64,000 nucleotides of DNA from Bdellovibrionota bacterium. Its GTDB lineage: Bacteria; Bdellovibrionota_C; UBA2361; CAKMMH01. The stretch covers positions 96,001 to 160,000 of the forward strand of contig JBMNLI010000017.1 in assembly GCA_050952645.1 (NCBI GenBank). The letters run 5' to 3'. A model generated the notes under the pieces. The model saw only the letters and a program-made list of their open reading frames with translations, ran no database searches and was not told the DNA's origin. Position numbers and translations under genes: made by a program. This document shows positions 18,377 through 34,292 of the stretch, in pieces. Positions within the stretch are counted from its first letter, which is position 1; each line of letters begins with the position of its first letter.

Positions 18377-20317
18377 TTATCCTTTTGCTAAATTTATAAG
18401 CTCTTCTTCAGAAATAATTTTTATCGCTAACTCTTTTGCCTTAATATTTTTACTAGAGTTTGAAGTGATATCATTATTTATTAAATAATTAACATTACTA
18501 GAAATAGCTTTCAAAACTTTTCCCCCTTTACTTTCTATATATTCTACGAGTTCATCTCTATTTTTAAAACTGTTTGTGCTCCCAGTTATAACGAAATTTA
18601 TACTATTTAAAGTTTTATTATCACTAGTTTCTTTTATTATATTTATTTCTTTTTTTAAATTTTCAAATTCTCTTAGAAAATCGCTATCGCTAAAAACTTC
18701 TACCCACGCTTTTGCAACGCCCTCTCCAATGCCATCTATTTGATTTAATTCTTCAAAAGTTAAGTTACTTATTTTTTCCAAATCATCATTAAAGTAATTA
18801 CATATAAGCTTTGCTCTAGCTTGGCCAATTTCAGGAATGCCAAGAGCGTAAATAAAGTTTGCAAGCTTTATGCTCCTAGACTTTTCTACCGCTTCGATTA
18901 AATTGCTGTATGATTTTTCTCCAAACCCTTCAAATAAAATTATCTTCTCTCTATATTGCTCTAGTTTATATAAGTCAGAGTAAGCTTTGACCATGCCTTC
19001 ATCATAAAGTTTATTTAAAATCGCATCTGAAATTCCTTCTATATTCATAGCGTTTCTGCTTACAAATAAACTTAATTTTTTTAAAAATTTAGCTGGGCAA
19101 AACTCATTAGTGCAATACAAATATTCCGTATCATTTTCAGATATTATCGTAGCTTTATGTGCGCATACTGGGCATTTATCAGGAATAAGAAGATTATCGC
19201 TTTTAGTTTCGTTGCTAGCAACTTGAGGAATTATCATATTTGCTTTATAAACTAAGATGGTATCACCTAACCCAAGCTCAAGACCTTTTAAAATCGAAAT
19301 ATTGTGAAGTGATGCACGAGAAACCGTAGTCCCCTCTAGCTCGACACTATCGAATACCGCAACTGGATTTATAAGCCCAGTTCTTGAAACTAACCAATCT
19401 ACACTTCTTAATACCGTTTTAGCAGTTTCATCTTGCCATTTAAAAGCCAAGGAGTGTTTAGGGTATTTAGCCGTTATACCTAAACTTTCCGAGTATAAAA
19501 TATCATCAAAGGTAAGCACTAATCCATCAGACGGTATATCGTAATCGTTTATTTTTTCTTTAAACTTTAAAACTGCACTTTCAACATTACCTTTATTTAC
19601 GCTTACGCTTTCTACTACATTAAAGCCTAAGGTTTTTAAAAAATCGAAACACTTATTTTTAGAGTTTGAAATAAAATCTGATGCCTCTACTAAAGAAAAG
19701 ATAATGCAAAAAACATTTCTAGTAGCCACAACGGAGCTATCTTTTTGTCTAACAGACCCTGAACATAAATTGCGAGGATTTTTATAAATATCTCCAGCCT
19801 CTTTATTCATACGATTAAAATCTGAGTATTTTATTACTGCCTCTCCACGAAGCACTAGTTTTCCTTTATAATCTATAGAAAGCGGAATATTTTTAAAACG
19901 CTTAACATTTTCAGTTATAACCTCTCCGACTATGCCGTTTCCTCTAGTAACTCCGCTTACAAGCGTGCCATTTTCATAAGTTAAAACTATAGTTATACCG
20001 TCTAGCTTCCAAGATAAAAGCCCAAGTTTATCGCCAAGGAAATTTATAAGCTCTCCTACTTGTTTAGTCTTTTCTAAAGATAACATCGGGCTTGTGTGAG
20101 TAGCGTGAGCTAACGCCCCTAAAACCTCTGGCTCTACATTTATGCTTGGGCTATTAGGAAGAACTACACTAGTTTCTTTTTCTAACTCTCTTAATTTATC
20201 GAACAAGGCATCGTATTCAAAATCTGACATTATCGATTTATTTTCTCTATAATAAGAAGTTGCAGCCTTATTTAAAGTTTCTACAAGCGTTTTCATCTCG
20301 TTTAGTTTTTTATCCAC
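18377..20317 (-). CDS. ligA: NAD-dependent DNA ligase
   Basis: SWKLDG, TRGNG, LRGE, NPRN, DGLV, AFKW, Zn finger CPVC..C..C, BRCT FVITG. Confidence 0.96.
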   Translation of the reverse strand: MDKKLNEMKTLVETLNKAATSYYRENKSIMSDFEYDALFDKLRELEKETSVVLPNSPSINVEPEVLGALAHATHTSPMLSLEKTKQVGELINFLGDKLGLLSWKLDGITIVLTYENGTLVSGVTRGNGIVGEVITENVKRFKNIPLSIDYKGKLVLRGEAVIKYSDFNRMNKEAGDIYKNPRNLCSGSVRQKDSSVVATRNVFCIIFSLVEASDFISNSKNKCFDFLKTLGFNVVESVSVNKGNVESAVLKFKEKINDYDIPSDGLVLTFDDILYSESLGITAKYPKHSLAFKWQDETAKTVLRSVDWLVSRTGLINPVAVFDSVELEGTTVSRASLHNISILKGLELGLGDTILVYKANMIIPQVASNETKSDNLLIPDKCPVCAHKATIISENDTEYLYCTNEFCPAKFLKKLSLFVSRNAMNIEGISDAILNKLYDEGMVKAYSDLYKLEQYREKIILFEGFGEKSYSNLIEAVEKSRSIKLANFIYALGIPEIGQARAKLICNYFNDDLEKISNLTFEELNQIDGIGEGVAKAWVEVFSDSDFLREFENLKKEINIIKETSDNKTLNSINFVITGSTNSFKNRDELVEYIESKGGKVLKAISSNVNYLINNDITSNSSKNIKAKELAIKIISEEELINLAKG

Positions 20318-20439
20318 TACTTATACTCCTTAAAAATCAAGGTTTGAGGCTCTTTACACACGTGCAAGCACACGCAAGAACTAATTTTCTGGTTCTTCAC
20401 GTTTTAGGTGGGCTTAGAAAAATTGTTTTTCGGGGGTTA

Positions 20440-22332
20440 ATAGGGTAGAGCGAGGGCTATACCCTCTCCCTCCCGTCGCACCGTACGTACGGGTCTCGTA
20501 TACGGCGCTCCATTAATATAATATCAAGTAATACTCAGGTAATACGTCAAAGGGTCGATTAAACCAATTCGTTCCTTTGTTTTACGCCCCAATATTTTAG
20601 GGCTTAAGCATAATTCACTACGTACCACGAACTGCGTCTATACCAGCCGAGTCTGCTGTTAGCAACCTTATAGATTTCTTCATTTCTAAAATTGCAACCA
20701 AGCATTCGGTTCAATTTCTTAAGATTTAGATAGATTCGTCTCGGCAATTTCCACTGTTTAAGTATTATAACCCTCACTTTGTGTCTAAGCCATTGACCAT
20801 ATTTATCTATAAAAGTCTTAAGAGTTCCTATCTTATAATAGTTTATCCAACCTTTAATTAACCAGCTTAGCTGTTGAAATGTCGAACCTAACGTTCGTGC
20901 CATTGCCTTCCGTCTACAAAGAATTTCTCTAGTTTTATCATAGAGTTTTCGTTTGCGATCTTCAGCAGGTTTACATTTCCAAGTTTTATACCCACTCTTC
21001 CAGTAGGTAAAGCCTAAGAAAGTGCTTTCCGTCGGCCTAGAGATTTTACTCTTACTTGAATTAATTTTAAGTCGTAGCTTACGCTCCAACCAACTCGCAA
21101 CGGACTTCATTACTCTATTAGCAGCCTTTTCACTTCTAACAAATATATTACAGTCATCGGCATATCTAACAAACTTAAGTCCTCTTGCTTCCAGTTCCTT
21201 GTCGAGCTTATCAAGGTATATGTTAGATAATACTGGGGATAATGGACCTCCTTGCGGAACTCCTTTCTCACTTACAGTAAACAATCCATCTTCCATTATA
21301 CCAGCTCTTAAGAACTGTCTTATCAATCGTAGTGTCTTCGCATCTTTGATGCGTTCCCTGATTATCGAAATTAATTTGTCGTGATTAACAGTATCAAAAT
21401 ATTTCTCTATGTCTAGGTCTATAACCCAATCATAGCCTCTTTTCAAGTACTCAAGAGTTCTATATACTGCTAGATGGCAATTCCTTCTAGGTCTAAAGCC
21501 ATAGCTACTATTACTAAAATACTTTTCGTATCCGCGTGCTAGTATTTGCGCTACCGCTTGTTGAATTACCCTATCTACTACTGTAGGTATTCCTAAAGGT
21601 CTCATCTTACCATTAGCTTTAGGTATATACACTCTCTTAACTGGACTCGGCTTATAATTCCCTTCACGTATCTGAGATTTTATCTCTTCTCTGTGAACGG
21701 CAAAATAGTCTTCAAGCTCATCTACTGGCATATCATCTACACCAGATGCACCTTTATTTCGCTTAACAGCCTTTATAGCCTCATCTATATTTTTGTCTGA
21801 TATAATCAGTTCAATCAATTCCACCTGTTGCTCCTCCCTCTGTTTGTAAAGCTACTAGAAAACACCCCCTCTATCTTCTGCCCCCACAGGTTACGTTCCT
21901 GTTTGTTAGGCATATCTTCAATTTCGGACTCTTCTAGCCTTGCTTACAGTGATTCACAATATATTAACGTTCAACCCTTCCTTGAGTGGTGTCTCAAGTA
22001 CTATGGTATCAACTGACTTCCAGATATAAGCTTTATATCGCACGTGCATAGCACGCTATCTGGACCTCCCGGGGTAAGGCATAGTTCTTTCACCAGACAA
22101 CCTCCAGATTTACTCGTTTGGTTTTACGTTTGTCTTTAGGGCTTCGGTTTGTAGCGCAACCTCACCCACCATTTAGCCTTGTATCTGGTTTCTGTTCGTA
22201 GGCTCCTTGGTTTTGATCCGCCACTTCCTTCACTCTAACATTACTGCTTCGAGCTTGTGGCATCACTACACTTGGTGACAACTACCCGTGACGGGACTTT
22301 CACCCGCTAGAACTATGTCGTGCCCGGCACAC
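20440..22332 (-). mobile_element. Group II intron, class C-like (1893 nt)
   Basis: 5' end GTGTGCCGGGCACG; domain V GAGCGCCGTATACGAGACCCGTACGTACGGTGC (CGC triad); domain VI ending CTACCCTAT; internal RT ORF; both boundaries confirmed by empty-site copies. Confidence 0.93.
20604..21824 (-). CDS. ltrA: Group II intron reverse transcriptase/maturase (no endonuclease domain; C-terminus frameshifted, other frame runs to 20524)
   Basis: RPLGIPTVVDR, SYGFRP, DIEKYFD, GVPQGGPLSP, RYADD, FLGF, GWINYY; GGAGG RBS before GTG. Confidence 0.95.
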   Translation of the reverse strand: MELIELIISDKNIDEAIKAVKRNKGASGVDDMPVDELEDYFAVHREEIKSQIREGNYKPSPVKRVYIPKANGKMRPLGIPTVVDRVIQQAVAQILARGYEKYFSNSSYGFRPRRNCHLAVYRTLEYLKRGYDWVIDLDIEKYFDTVNHDKLISIIRERIKDAKTLRLIRQFLRAGIMEDGLFTVSEKGVPQGGPLSPVLSNIYLDKLDKELEARGLKFVRYADDCNIFVRSEKAANRVMKSVASWLERKLRLKINSSKSKISRPTESTFLGFTYWKSGYKTWKCKPAEDRKRKLYDKTREILCRRKAMARTLGSTFQQLSWLIKGWINYYKIGTLKTFIDKYGQWLRHKVRVIILKQWKLPRRIYLNLKKLNRMLGCNFRNEEIYKVANSRLGWYRRSSWYVVNYA

Positions 22333-22554
22333 GCTTAAAAGAAAATTGGCTTTTATAGAAAACTATCTATAGTTTAAAGAGAAATTACAACTATACTTAA
22401 AGTAATTTATTTTATGCAAATTTCTTTAAAGTCAATTTTCTTTTGGGCTTCGCCTGAGGTGAGTGATACTAACTTTAAGGTCTTTACCCCACTTAAAACG
22501 TGAAAAACTAATTTTCATATCTTATATTAAGTAAATATTTAATTTAGATAAAGA

Positions 22555-24717: not shown

Positions 24718-27700
24718 TTAAGAAACTACACACCTGCCACTTTCACACCTTAGTTTATAGCTATCACAATCTGCATCATTTTCGCAAAGCTTGCCATAAT
24801 TCTTTTCCCCAAGCGAACACCTGTATATATCATCCTCAAACCGTATACAATTACCTCCGCAACATTCTTCAGTCATACTGCCTGGCGTGCAACCTAAAGG
24901 TTTAAAATTCTCCCCAGACATACAATTATACTCTCCTTTACATTCGCCATTATCACACGTTCTTCCTTCGCCACAACACTCACCACCACATAACGGCTCA
25001 CGACAACAATATTCATAAATATCATGCGTATATATACGATCTATCTCACAGCAACCACTTCCTAAGTATGATGTATAAGCAACTTTACCCTCATCGCAAC
25101 ATTTAGAACCATCGTAAACTCTCTCTGTTGGGCAACACGTCCCATTTACAAACTTACCATCGCAACATTCACTTCTATCATTATAACAATCTTGCTCACT
25201 AGAACAGCAATTAGTTCCACAAGCATAAGAACCACTTTCGCAACTCGCTTGGCTTTCTAAACTTTTACTAGATACACTACTTACAGATTCCGCTTCATAA
25301 CTATTATAACTTCCACTAGATGTGCTACTTTCACTTTCGTTTGTACACCTACCAGTATTTTCATCATATGCCTCACCAGATGGACAACATGCAAATATCT
25401 CTGTTTCCCAATTGCTATATGCGCAATACTCTCCAAGTTTACAACAGGAAGAGCCACACGTTCCAGTCGTATTATCTGTAAGTGGGTTGCAACAAACATC
25501 TATTAGTTCTCCTGTAAAACTATTCGTCACACTCCCAACATAATAATCGTTAGGTCTAGCACAGCAACCTTGATAATCAGGATCATTTGAATCTGTATAA
25601 ACAGTCCCATCACAACAGTATTGCTTAGTATCAGAAGCACTTCTATAAACAGTTCCATTACAACACGTATAAGTTATTTTTCCAAGTATTAATTCATTTA
25701 TCATACTTTCATCTGCCTCTTTCAAGCTATTCTCTTGAGCTTCTGTTAGCGATGACATACATTTATCGGCATCACAGCATACACCAGAAGGACATTGAAC
25801 CTGTCCATCTTTAGAACAACACGATCTAGCTGGCACAACTTCCCGTGTTCCATCTTCATGAATACGAATATACCTAAAAGAATCTTTTATATCGGCACAA
25901 TATATAGCTTCTGGATCATCTCCCTCAACACCAGTTGGGCAACAACTCCCCCCACAGTAAACTGAATCCTCTAAACAACACACAGGTTCCCCAGAAGGAT
26001 TAAATTTCTCACCTTTCTCTATGCCTAATCCTTTAAGTTTAGGAGTTCCTTCAGGACAGCAATATCCCATAACATAGCTTTCACCATCAACTTGAACTAC
26101 TTCTTCGCCTGCTACAAAACCTTCACCGCAGTCAAAAGAGCATGTAAATGTTATATTGCTATTTTGATCCATATGATACTGTGCAATTTCTCCATCTTCA
26201 CAGCATAATTTTTCTCCGAACTCTCCTTCAAAATAATTCTCATCTTTGCAACAACCATCCCCGGGGTCGCCATTTTCTTTATTGCAACACCTATTATCAT
26301 TCCCACTAGGATTATTACCATCGATATTATCCATGCACGTATACCCAGCAGGACACGTACAGCCTACAAATGGTGGCAAACTACTAGAACTAGAATAACT
26401 ATCGCTATAAGAATAACTAGAAGAACTACTATAAAAATAATTTGGTCTACTTGAACTAGATTGAGAACTATAACTACTAAAAGATGAACTCGAACTTAAT
26501 GATACCGACACTCTACTTAACGAAGACGAAACGCTTCCTAGAGATATAGAAAAACTACTAGGTGCCAAAGAATAATTGCTAGACTTACTAGACAATGAAG
26601 AGCCACTAAATAAAGAACCGTTAGATATACTAGATACAGATGATATAACACTACTTAAAGAACTTAAGCTACTACTAGGCGATAAACTGCTTTTGCTACT
26701 AGACGATGAACTCTTACTAGAAGAGCTACTGCTAGATAAACTTTGCGAACTGCTTTTACTAAAACTACTTGAACTCAAACTTAAAGAGCTAGACGATGAA
26801 CTCTTACTACTAGATGATAAACTAGAACCTAAAGAGCTAGAAGAACTACTACTTAGCGAAGAACTACTACTTAGCGAAGAACTCTTACCACTAGATGAAC
26901 TGCTTTTGCTACTAGACGACGAACTAGGACTTAAAGAACTAAACGAACTACTACTAGGTGAACTACTCTTGCTCGAACTGCTTTTGCTACTAGAAGATAA
27001 GCTAGGACTTAAAGAGCTAGAAGAACTACTACTTAGCGAAGAACTCTTACTAGATGAAGAGCTAGAACTACTAGATGAAGAACTCTTACTTGAACTAGAA
27101 CTACTTTTACTACCAGAAGATGAACTACTACTAGACGAACTTGATAAGCTACTTTTACTACTTAACGATGAACTTTTACTTAAACTAGAACTTAATGAAC
27201 TAAAAGAACTACTACTAGGCGAACTACTCTTACTACTAGACGGACTACTACTAGATGAAGAACTCTTACTAGAACTGCTTGAACTAGGGCTACTAGAAGA
27301 ACTTAATGAACTGCTCTTGCTACTAGAAGATGAACTCTTACTAGAAGAACTACTCTTGCTTGAACTAGGACTTAAAGAACTACTTGACGAAGAACTTTTA
27401 CTAGAGCTACTTTTGCTACTAGAACTACTACTTAATGAACTAGCTGAACTGCTCTTACTACTAAAAGATAAACTACTCTTACTACTAGATAAAGAACTCT
27501 TACTAGAACTAGAACTTTTCTTACTAGAACTAGAACTTTTCTTACTAGAACTACTACTGCTAAGCGAACTACTAGAACTGCTAGGCGATAATGAACTACT
27601 ACTACTAGAAGAACTAGGATATGAGCTACTACTACTAGATGCACTGCTACTAGATAAACTGCTCCTACTAGACGATGAACTGCTAGATGACGAACTGCTA

Positions 27701-27930
27701 CTAGACGAACTCCCCTTAGGTGAACTAGATGTATCGAAAATTTGCGCAGTCCTAAAAAAACCTACATGAAACGAATCTGCTATGAGAGGCTCATCACCTA
27801 ACAACTTAAATATATCTAATATTATACCAGACTTAATATAAATCTTCCCTCCCTTCATTGTCCTAAGTTTTATCGTCTCACTTTCTTTATCAACGGGAGC
27901 AAAATCTAAATATTCTTCCTTCTTCCACAA
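24718..27930 (-). CDS. Large Ser-rich/Cys-rich surface protein (main segment of a probably frameshifted gene 28553-24609)
   Basis: ~450-aa poly-Ser tract (~27733-26380) followed by many CC/CxxxCC motifs. Confidence 0.8.
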   Translation of the reverse strand: MWKKEEYLDFAPVDKESETIKLRTMKGGKIYIKSGIILDIFKLLGDEPLIADSFHVGFFRTAQIFDTSSSPKGSSSSSSSSSSSSSSSRSSLSSSSASSSSSSYPSSSSSSSSLSPSSSSSSLSSSSSSKKSSSSSKKSSSSSKSSLSSSKSSLSFSSKSSSASSLSSSSSSKSSSSKSSSSSSSLSPSSSKSSSSSKSSSSSSKSSSLSSSSSPSSSSSSKSSSSSSSPSSSKSSSPSSSSFSSLSSSLSKSSSLSSKSSLSSSSSSSSSSGSKSSSSSSKSSSSSSSSSSSSKSSSLSSSSSSSLSPSLSSSSKSSSSKSSSPSSSSFSSLSPSSSSSSKSSSSSGKSSSLSSSSSLSSSSSSSLGSSLSSSSKSSSSSSLSLSSSSFSKSSSQSLSSSSSSSKSSSSSSKSSLSPSSSLSSLSSVISSVSSISNGSLFSGSSLSSKSSNYSLAPSSFSISLGSVSSSLSRVSVSLSSSSSFSSYSSQSSSSRPNYFYSSSSSYSYSDSYSSSSSLPPFVGCTCPAGYTCMDNIDGNNPSGNDNRCCNKENGDPGDGCCKDENYFEGEFGEKLCCEDGEIAQYHMDQNSNITFTCSFDCGEGFVAGEEVVQVDGESYVMGYCCPEGTPKLKGLGIEKGEKFNPSGEPVCCLEDSVYCGGSCCPTGVEGDDPEAIYCADIKDSFRYIRIHEDGTREVVPARSCCSKDGQVQCPSGVCCDADKCMSSLTEAQENSLKEADESMINELILGKITYTCCNGTVYRSASDTKQYCCDGTVYTDSNDPDYQGCCARPNDYYVGSVTNSFTGELIDVCCNPLTDNTTGTCGSSCCKLGEYCAYSNWETEIFACCPSGEAYDENTGRCTNESESSTSSGSYNSYEAESVSSVSSKSLESQASCESGSYACGTNCCSSEQDCYNDRSECCDGKFVNGTCCPTERVYDGSKCCDEGKVAYTSYLGSGCCEIDRIYTHDIYEYCCREPLCGGECCGEGRTCDNGECKGEYNCMSGENFKPLGCTPGSMTEECCGGNCIRFEDDIYRCSLGEKNYGKLCENDADCDSYKLRCESGRCVVS

Positions 27931-29011: not shown

Positions 29012-29224
29012 AGCTCTTCACGTTTTAAGGTAGTTTTAAATTTTCAAAATTAGTACAACTCCCCCCACGAAGCCTAAAAGAAAACTGACTTTAAAGGATT
29101 TACATAAAACAAATTACTTTGTATAGAGCTATAAAAAATCTTTATCTAGTCGAACACTAAAGCAAATTTTCTTTTAAGCTAACAAAAAAACAATTCTTCC
29201 AACCCACTCAGAACGTGAAGAACC
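29012..29224 (-). mobile_element. MITE family A, full intron-free copy
   Basis: TIRs AGCTCTTCACGTTTTAAGG / CTCAGAACGTGAAGAACC; internal 21-bp inverted repeat; contains the empty intron site (AAGC|TAAC). Confidence 0.88.
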
Positions 29225-34227: not shown

Positions 34228-34292
34228 GCTCCTTCACGTTTTAGGTGGGTTAGGAAAATAGGCTTTTTTGTTAGCTTAAAACTTGAAGAACG
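34228..34292 (+). mobile_element. MITE family A, 65-bp mini derivative
   Basis: Left end joined to right end at CTTAAAA; perfect 8-bp TSD AAAATTTT (34220-34227 and 34293-34300). Confidence 0.82.

Follow-up and report, generated by a model that had tools for sequence, protein, structure and literature searches.

A class C (IIC) group II intron lies at the foot of a hairpin inside a MITE. Did it reach this position by homing into a transposon already in place, by traveling with the transposon, or by ordinary insertion after a terminator-like structure? Class C introns are known to insert after terminators, attC sites, or other inverted repeats, according to the available portions of three sources (PMC4424553; PMC7923331; PMC1702495). 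The window, i.e., the whole stretch of 64,000 nucleotides analyzed (G000:C17:96001-160000), belongs to a genome of 1.95 Mb in 17 contigs with a GC content of approximately 31%. A first-pass annotation of the window had described a class C-like intron inserted at the stem base of a MITE with TIRs and an 8-bp TSD. It had further proposed that this transposase-mobilised MITE serves as a multicopy intergenic landing pad, and that the intron could hitchhike when the MITE moves.

Methods

Relatives of the intron comprised at least 80 genome loci (59-77% identity, mostly Bacillota) and at least 80 metagenome loci. For the covariation analysis, the loop taken from the Rfam alignment was compared with the last four exon bases. 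An earlier covariation run, which included repeated Mogibacterium pumilum copies and used a strict pattern, gave 53/112; those 11 loci were then dropped. This left 69 genome loci, of which 43 gave both a 5' end and a loop, and 80 metagenome loci, of which 56 did so; 94 unique sites had 50 nt of exon. Intron-spanning joints in runs X1-X3 had short sides and probably derive from other MITE copies; they were therefore not counted as empty alleles of the 20440-22332 locus. A lenient site rule was learned from the relatives, and 203 intergenic sites of the genome qualified under it.

Table 1. Coordinates of the intron, its host MITE, and related features in the window.
Feature	Position	Strand	Remark
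Left 8-bp TSD (AATTTTCT)	20383..20390	+	7/8 identical to right copy
Left TIR of ISL3-type MITE	20391..20414	+	Nearly identical to left end of ISL3 at G000:C10:339480
MITE left arm (intron 3' exon)	20391..20439	+	20439 is IBS3 (T on minus strand)
Class C (IIC) group II intron, 1893 nt	20440..22332	-	1 of 10 genome copies
Domains V-VI	20440..20510	-	Rfam RF00029 alignment
CGC replacing AGC triad	20505-20507	-	Rfam RF00029 alignment
RT-maturase ORF, no endonuclease domain	20604..21824	-	406 aa as assembled; 433 aa in C6 copy
Earlier tentative EBS1 (GCTT), rejected	22028..22031	-	3' of domain I
Domain I core with AGGAA motif	22079..22250	-	Rfam group-II-D1D4-3
EBS1 (GCUA)	22152..22155	-	Rfam-alignment loop and covariation; identical in 10/10 copies
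116-bp hairpin module (21-bp imperfect stem, A-tract and T-tract feet, 74-nt branched loop)	22333..22448
Bottom-strand foot (site B), IBS1 AAGC	22333..22336	-	Occupied in window copy
Top-strand foot (site A), GGGC then T	22445..22449	+	Empty in window copy
Right TIR of MITE	22486..22509	-	TIR motif search
Right TSD (AATTTTCA)	22510..22517	+	7/8 identical to left copy
Diverged intron-free MITE copy	29012..29224	-	77% identical to intact reference copy
MITE left arm with intron-free junction	34228..34283	+	No full hairpin module listed there

Intron and encoded protein

The intron runs from GUGUG to AU at 22332/20440 on the minus strand, and its ends match the GUGYG...AY rule for class C introns. 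Its CGC triad and AGGAA motif are described as IIC intron features in the available part of PMC1702495. The closing helix of domain I, read from the sequence, pairs 22309-22317 with 22080-22088; folding of the whole of domains I-III was uninformative (z = -0.91 against shuffles). A profile search of the RT-maturase ORF gave RVT_1 and GIIM as its only domains, and TIGR04416 was passed at 411 bits. The best PDB matches of the RT were the Eubacterium rectale (E. rectale) intron 7UIM and GsI-IIC 6AR1 (360 and 337 bits); in this similarity ranking, LtrA scored 165 bits and the 6ME0 maturase 133 bits. The window ORF is one base short near its end. The contigs of all four runs carry an extra base at 20607, and the missing base is present in the other nine of nine genome copies. 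By its ends, domains, CGC triad, AGGAA motif, RT ranking, 4-nt EBS1, and upstream stem-loop, the intron is assigned to class C, as the first-pass annotation had supposed.

Host MITE

Removal of the intron rejoins the junction GTTAGCTTAAAA, as in the intron-free copies at 29012-29224 (reverse) and 34270-34281. The inverted repeat read from the sequence (22333-22353 against 22428-22448) matches at 18/21 positions, and the insertion lies at the base of its stem, the 5' exon folding with z = -3.6 as DNA. These points of the first-pass annotation stood, as did the TIRs; the TSD is 7/8 at the window copy and 8/8 only in other copies, which are many. The TIR motif gave 256 matches in the genome and 0 in a reversed-genome control, and many left-right TIR pairs bear 8-bp duplications. 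MITE lengths cluster at approximately 104, 223, and 270 bp, the 223-bp form having the added 116-bp hairpin module. This module is present in 59 copies genome-wide, and short-loop variants retain the same stem feet.

A 1860-bp element (C10:339480-341339) shares the ends of the MITE and has a perfect 8-bp TSD, and it holds the sole PF01610 (ISL3) match in the genome. Its empty site, with 8 shared bases, was found in run X3; the ISL3 is thus polymorphic between runs. The transposase frame is broken near the 5' end, and the same break is present in a contig of run X1, itself perhaps the source sample. The interior of the ~270-bp MITE subfamily corresponds to the right 220 bp of the ISL3, and no stretch of 60 bp or more in the interior of the hairpin subfamily matches this ISL3 element. 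The shared ends suggest that the MITE family is of an ISL3-derived type and would be mobilised in trans by the ISL3 transposase. The matching ends and the empty site in run X3 also favor the proposal of a transposase-mobilised MITE. Two other candidate partners were rejected: IS1595, given no PF12762 match in the genome, and a nine-copy IS with a 562-aa ORF, the ends of which differ.

Head-to-tail MITE arrays were observed at C9:42963-43772, C10:108237-108727, and C10:199808-200457, with periods of 196, 98, and 272 bp; one of them holds an intron copy. For modules between co-oriented genes, MITE orientation equaled gene orientation in 32/40, a count that is inflated by tandem arrays and rests on crude ORF calls. 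Co-oriented modules often lie within approximately 70 bp of the next ORF, which may reflect an outward promoter or orientation-dependent selection.

Landing sites of the ten intron copies

The genome contains ten copies of the intron, at least 99.3% identical, and nine of them lie in the ISL3-type MITE family (six at the top-strand foot and three at the bottom-strand foot). Site A, empty in the window copy, is used in five other full hairpin copies (GGGC then T) and in one short-loop variant within a tandem array (AGGC then T). The three copies at the bottom-strand foot follow AAGC and precede T; one of these MITEs has lost or lacks its left arm. The tenth copy follows an unrelated GC-rich hairpin outside the MITE family (TAGC then A), and the +1 base is T in the other nine. 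The hairpin is used at both feet, on opposite strands, which goes beyond the single foot observed earlier. The flank table also bears out the MITE as a multicopy intergenic landing pad.

All ten 5' exons folded better than their shuffles (z -3.6 to -6.0 as DNA), and IBS1 at the hairpin foot is predicted to be paired in the DNA fold. An intron variant from run X3, with 11 differences, is likewise joined to the bottom-strand foot. The G-rich strand is the lagging-strand template if skew marks leading-strand sequence. The intron sense is on the G-rich strand in 8/10 copies, a strand bias that was not significant (p = 0.055). An attC reading of the sites was rejected: the junctions are AAGC, GGGC, AGGC, and TAGC with no TTGT/T, and the host has TIRs and TSDs. 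The RT gene of one intron copy is interrupted by a 1.86-kb IS with a 562-aa ORF (nine near-identical copies, e.g., G000:C10:108918-110785), which presumably resembles IS1634.

Separate homing or movement with the MITE

Hitchhiking would mean that the intron entered one or two MITEs and that the ISL3 transposase then propagated the composite. Six composites retain both TIRs and a 7-8/8 TSD and so appear mobilisable; their length of approximately 2.1 kb is close to that of the 1.86-kb ISL3, itself polymorphic between runs. However, the hosts do not resemble one another as jointly moved copies would. In pairwise comparison, 8-35 changes over 173-221 columns separate the eight occupied full-length host MITEs (28/28 pairs), no two being alike, whereas the alignment of the introns has 19 variable columns in approximately 1900, mostly single-copy indels. 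The nearest neighbor of an occupied MITE is an empty copy in 7/8 cases, and the occupied C6 MITE has an empty paralog, the C12 MITE, which shares its flanks and TSD. Two different MITE sites and one non-MITE site are occupied, and the only ISL3 transposase found has the frame break matched by the run X1 contig. The composites keep their TIRs, yet no movement was seen. Hitchhiking is largely refuted for the studied genome, and we consider a spread by composites highly improbable.

The divergent hosts, the near-identical introns, and the empty paralog fit separate homing events into pre-existing MITEs. The ten near-identical copies, nine of them at MITE hairpin feet, would each have arisen from their own retrohoming into a MITE already in place, an explanation that we regard as probable.

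EBS1 guide

Over the 94 unique sites of the listed relatives, 296 of 376 EBS1-IBS1 positions were Watson-Crick pairs, against a shuffled mean of 146 and a maximum of 175, a large difference even though the relatives are not independent of one another. The 43 listed genome loci gave 136/172 (shuffle 63, maximum 86). Since the loop covaries with the exon end, EBS1 is placed as GCUA at the position given in Table 1. The GCTT tentatively proposed before lies approximately 50 nt past the closing helix of domain I, in the next hairpin, which from its position would be domain II; that assignment was therefore abandoned. GCUA pairs fully with the non-MITE site TAGC and at three of four positions with both MITE feet, one of the three pairs at the GGGC foot being a G-U wobble. 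Position 4 of EBS1 is A, the commonest state in the listed relatives (76/94), and it is mismatched at both MITE feet; a mismatch at this position occurs in 29/94 sites of the listed relatives.

Relatives of the intron and the terminator reading

Approximately 95% of the sites of the listed relatives (89/94) are preceded by a short terminator-like hairpin (-5 kcal/mol or better) and a T-tract, and IBS1 is predicted to be paired at the foot in 19/86. The flanks of the listed relatives gave no MITE match in the 80 metagenome loci and one unrelated 60-bp match in the genome loci, and the 5' exons of the listed genome-locus relatives had no matches among each other. The intron was not found in 40 sampled same-order genomes (one weak match of 107 bp, 70%), a search for the MITE in 10 related genomes gave one weak match only, and neither ISL3 nor a group II RT was found in three same-family genomes (80-92% complete). 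The closest RT was 78% identical among the matches listed, and no ancestor of the intron was found there. From these sequence comparisons, MITE use appears local to the host lineage and no trait of the intron clade. The first-pass annotation had held that the insertion would be a one-off if other copies or relatives sat after ordinary terminators without enrichment for the MITE site. For the relatives this was the case, since none has a MITE flank and most are at ordinary hairpins; in its own genome, 9/10 copies are in the MITE, near the family's share of the site supply.

One alternative is that the intron is a textbook class C element and the MITE bears an intrinsic terminator acting in both directions (A-tract, stem, T-tract), which would make the insertions ordinary post-terminator events. 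Both MITE sites follow TTTTCTTTT, like the T-tract of the relatives (T at -7 in 91/94 listed sites), short-loop family variants have GC-rich stems, and the available part of PMC1702495 places IIC introns behind terminators "or other inverted repeats". However, the main target differs from a terminator in its AT-rich stem and 74-nt loop, and the modules are not enriched between convergent genes (9/58 placed modules against 101/698 gaps). This reading, which we hold to be somewhat unlikely, is compatible with separate retrohoming into resident MITEs and would lower its novelty.

Among the relatives, the M. pumilum loci L035-L044 and L076 have an RT-bearing intron after the same internal hairpin in 11/11 cases. 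Several of these loci show an additional intron 5' end upstream and an additional 3' end downstream, which looks like a twintron transferred as one unit to different terminators. At L161:1577-2406, a related intron is followed, approximately 110 bp past its 3' end, by an ISL3-like ORF, the only ISL3 match among the 160 loci listed. At L058:130-190, a related intron begins directly after the apparent domain V-VI end of another group II intron.

Site supply and guide preference

The qualifying sites comprised 91 in the MITE mask (8 filled), 18 family-type feet (1 filled), and 94 others (1 filled). Under the lenient model, the excess over supply was 8/91 against 2/112 (p = 0.045; p = 0.15 if a +1 T was required), and a grouping chosen after viewing the data gave 9/109 against 1/94 (p = 0.022). 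The guide GCU fits 109 family sites plus 40 others at a cut of -5 kcal/mol (149), or plus 8 at -8 kcal/mol (117). Its rank among the 64 triplets is 30 without the family; with the family, it is 2 at -8 kcal/mol and 6 at -5 kcal/mol, a count in which family sites are exempt from the energy cut and thereby favored. The MITE family makes up 73-93% of the sites fitting the guide, so site supply is sufficient for 9/10 copies in the family. Preference beyond supply is weak (p 0.02-0.15), and the pattern looks like an abundant site used by the ordinary class C mechanism, not proven MITE-specific targeting. Hairpin-less MITEs were occupied in 0/14 cases and hairpin modules in 8/59 (p = 0.34), a sample too small for a comparison.

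The intron might instead be a MITE specialist, the EBS1 of which mutated to GCUA after entry and was selected for approximately a hundred safe sites, and the maturase of which may have adapted to the long stem. GCUA occurs in 0/124 listed relatives with a readable loop, one of which begins with GC, and among the triplets listed GCU is the best of the 64 for family sites (109; next 54) and poor otherwise. EBS1 differs between near-identical relatives, which indicates that retargeting is fast; the intron has a long end branch (0.33), and the run X3 variant is also joined to a hairpin foot. Against specialization, position 4 is still A where GCUU would fit both feet better, the sole perfect EBS1 match is the non-MITE site, and an intron arriving already with GCUA would give the same picture, no ancestor having been found among the matches listed. 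EBS1 may have been retuned to the MITE, with position 4 left unoptimized. We judge the specialist account unlikely; it would add a step to separate retrohoming and leave the mechanism unchanged.

Proposed mechanism

Class C particles recognize a DNA stem, spacer, IBS1, and IBS3 and prime at replication forks, and the consensus target stem is roughly 12 bp, as stated in the available portions of PMC10190682 and PMC4424553 (for the stem length, PMC10190682). The MITE stem is longer than this consensus, and its loop is far larger (74 nt).

For separate retrohoming into resident MITEs, the following course is proposed. The MITE spread first, and its 59 hairpin modules offer a T-tract and RRGC/T junctions on both strands. 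EBS1 GCUA, as placed by covariation, pairs with three of the four IBS1 bases at each foot. By analogy with the class C mechanism, the RNA-maturase particle would bind the stem in single-stranded DNA and fray the weak basal pairs. Such fraying is assumed, as IBS1 is predicted to be paired at the foot. Reverse-splicing would take place between C and T, with the nascent strand at the replication fork serving as primer. With one site per strand in its hairpin, an intact MITE would present a target on the lagging-strand template in either orientation. Few ordinary hairpins are computed to end in RGC/T at 31% GC, and hence the MITE family supplies most of the eligible sites.

Comparison with known systems

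The intron resembles the terminator-type IIC introns (E. rectale 7UIM, GsI-IIC 6AR1, and B.h.I1) in its lack of an endonuclease, 4-nt EBS1, +1 T, CGC triad, and upstream stem with T-tract, and its best PDB matches are among them. It differs from them in that 9/10 sites are in one dispersed transposon family, with a stem of approximately 21 bp, a 74-nt loop, and both strands of one element used.

IIC-attC introns likewise have as sites the copies of one long imperfect inverted repeat of another mobile system and still use other hairpins, according to the available part of PMC7923331. As far as that text goes, those introns insert mostly on the bottom strand and form one lineage, whereas here both strands are used and the relatives have no shared target. 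The target here is also not attC, having no TTGT/T junction.

IS-targeting group II introns offer another parallel. RmInt1 homes into ISRm2011-2. The intron c-Ha.de.I1, found in ISPlu15-like elements, multiplies by homing into a multicopy IS and leaves many sites empty (PMC3522654, available part). In that part of the text, c-Ha.de.I1 and RmInt1 are not described as hairpin-guided class C introns. Unlike both, the present intron sits in a non-coding MITE and has a guide of only 4+1 nt.

The host element resembles an ISL3-derived MITE of Microcystis, the ends of which start with GGCTCTTC. That MITE also has direct repeats of 8 nt and a stem-loop interior, and its genome contains matching ISL3 elements; the available part of the source makes no mention of an intron target (PMC11448079). 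A search, mainly of open literature, found no published case of a class C intron within a bacterial MITE; Mohr 2018 and Robart 2007 may describe repeat or both-strand insertions.

We tentatively raise, and think rather unlikely as a whole, a wider reading in which the MITE hairpin would join terminators and attC as a third type of class C target. The four-base guide would have been retuned to a transposon hairpin with mirror-image feet, and MITE expansion would have given a target-poor intron a niche of approximately a hundred sites, usable in either orientation. 

The case illustrates how the number of targets open to one mobile element can be set by another; with a four-base guide, the copy number may follow whichever repeat family is abundant. 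With its long stem, large loop, two mirror sites, and hairpin-less variants, the MITE family also provides natural material for testing class C target recognition, which bears on how far the stem geometry of the E. rectale structure can be extended.

Neighboring features in the window

The intron-filled MITE starts 73 bp upstream of the start of an ORF (18377-20317; gap 20317-20391) that is co-oriented with the intron and that we take to be NAD-dependent ligase-like. A palindrome-rich stretch at 22701-22915 matches only itself in the genome; its palindromes recall, in our view, IS200/IS605 ends. The minus-strand ORF at 24718-27930 (1070 aa) is Ser-rich over a very long tract and Cys-rich in its C-terminal half; parts of this ORF recur at other loci.
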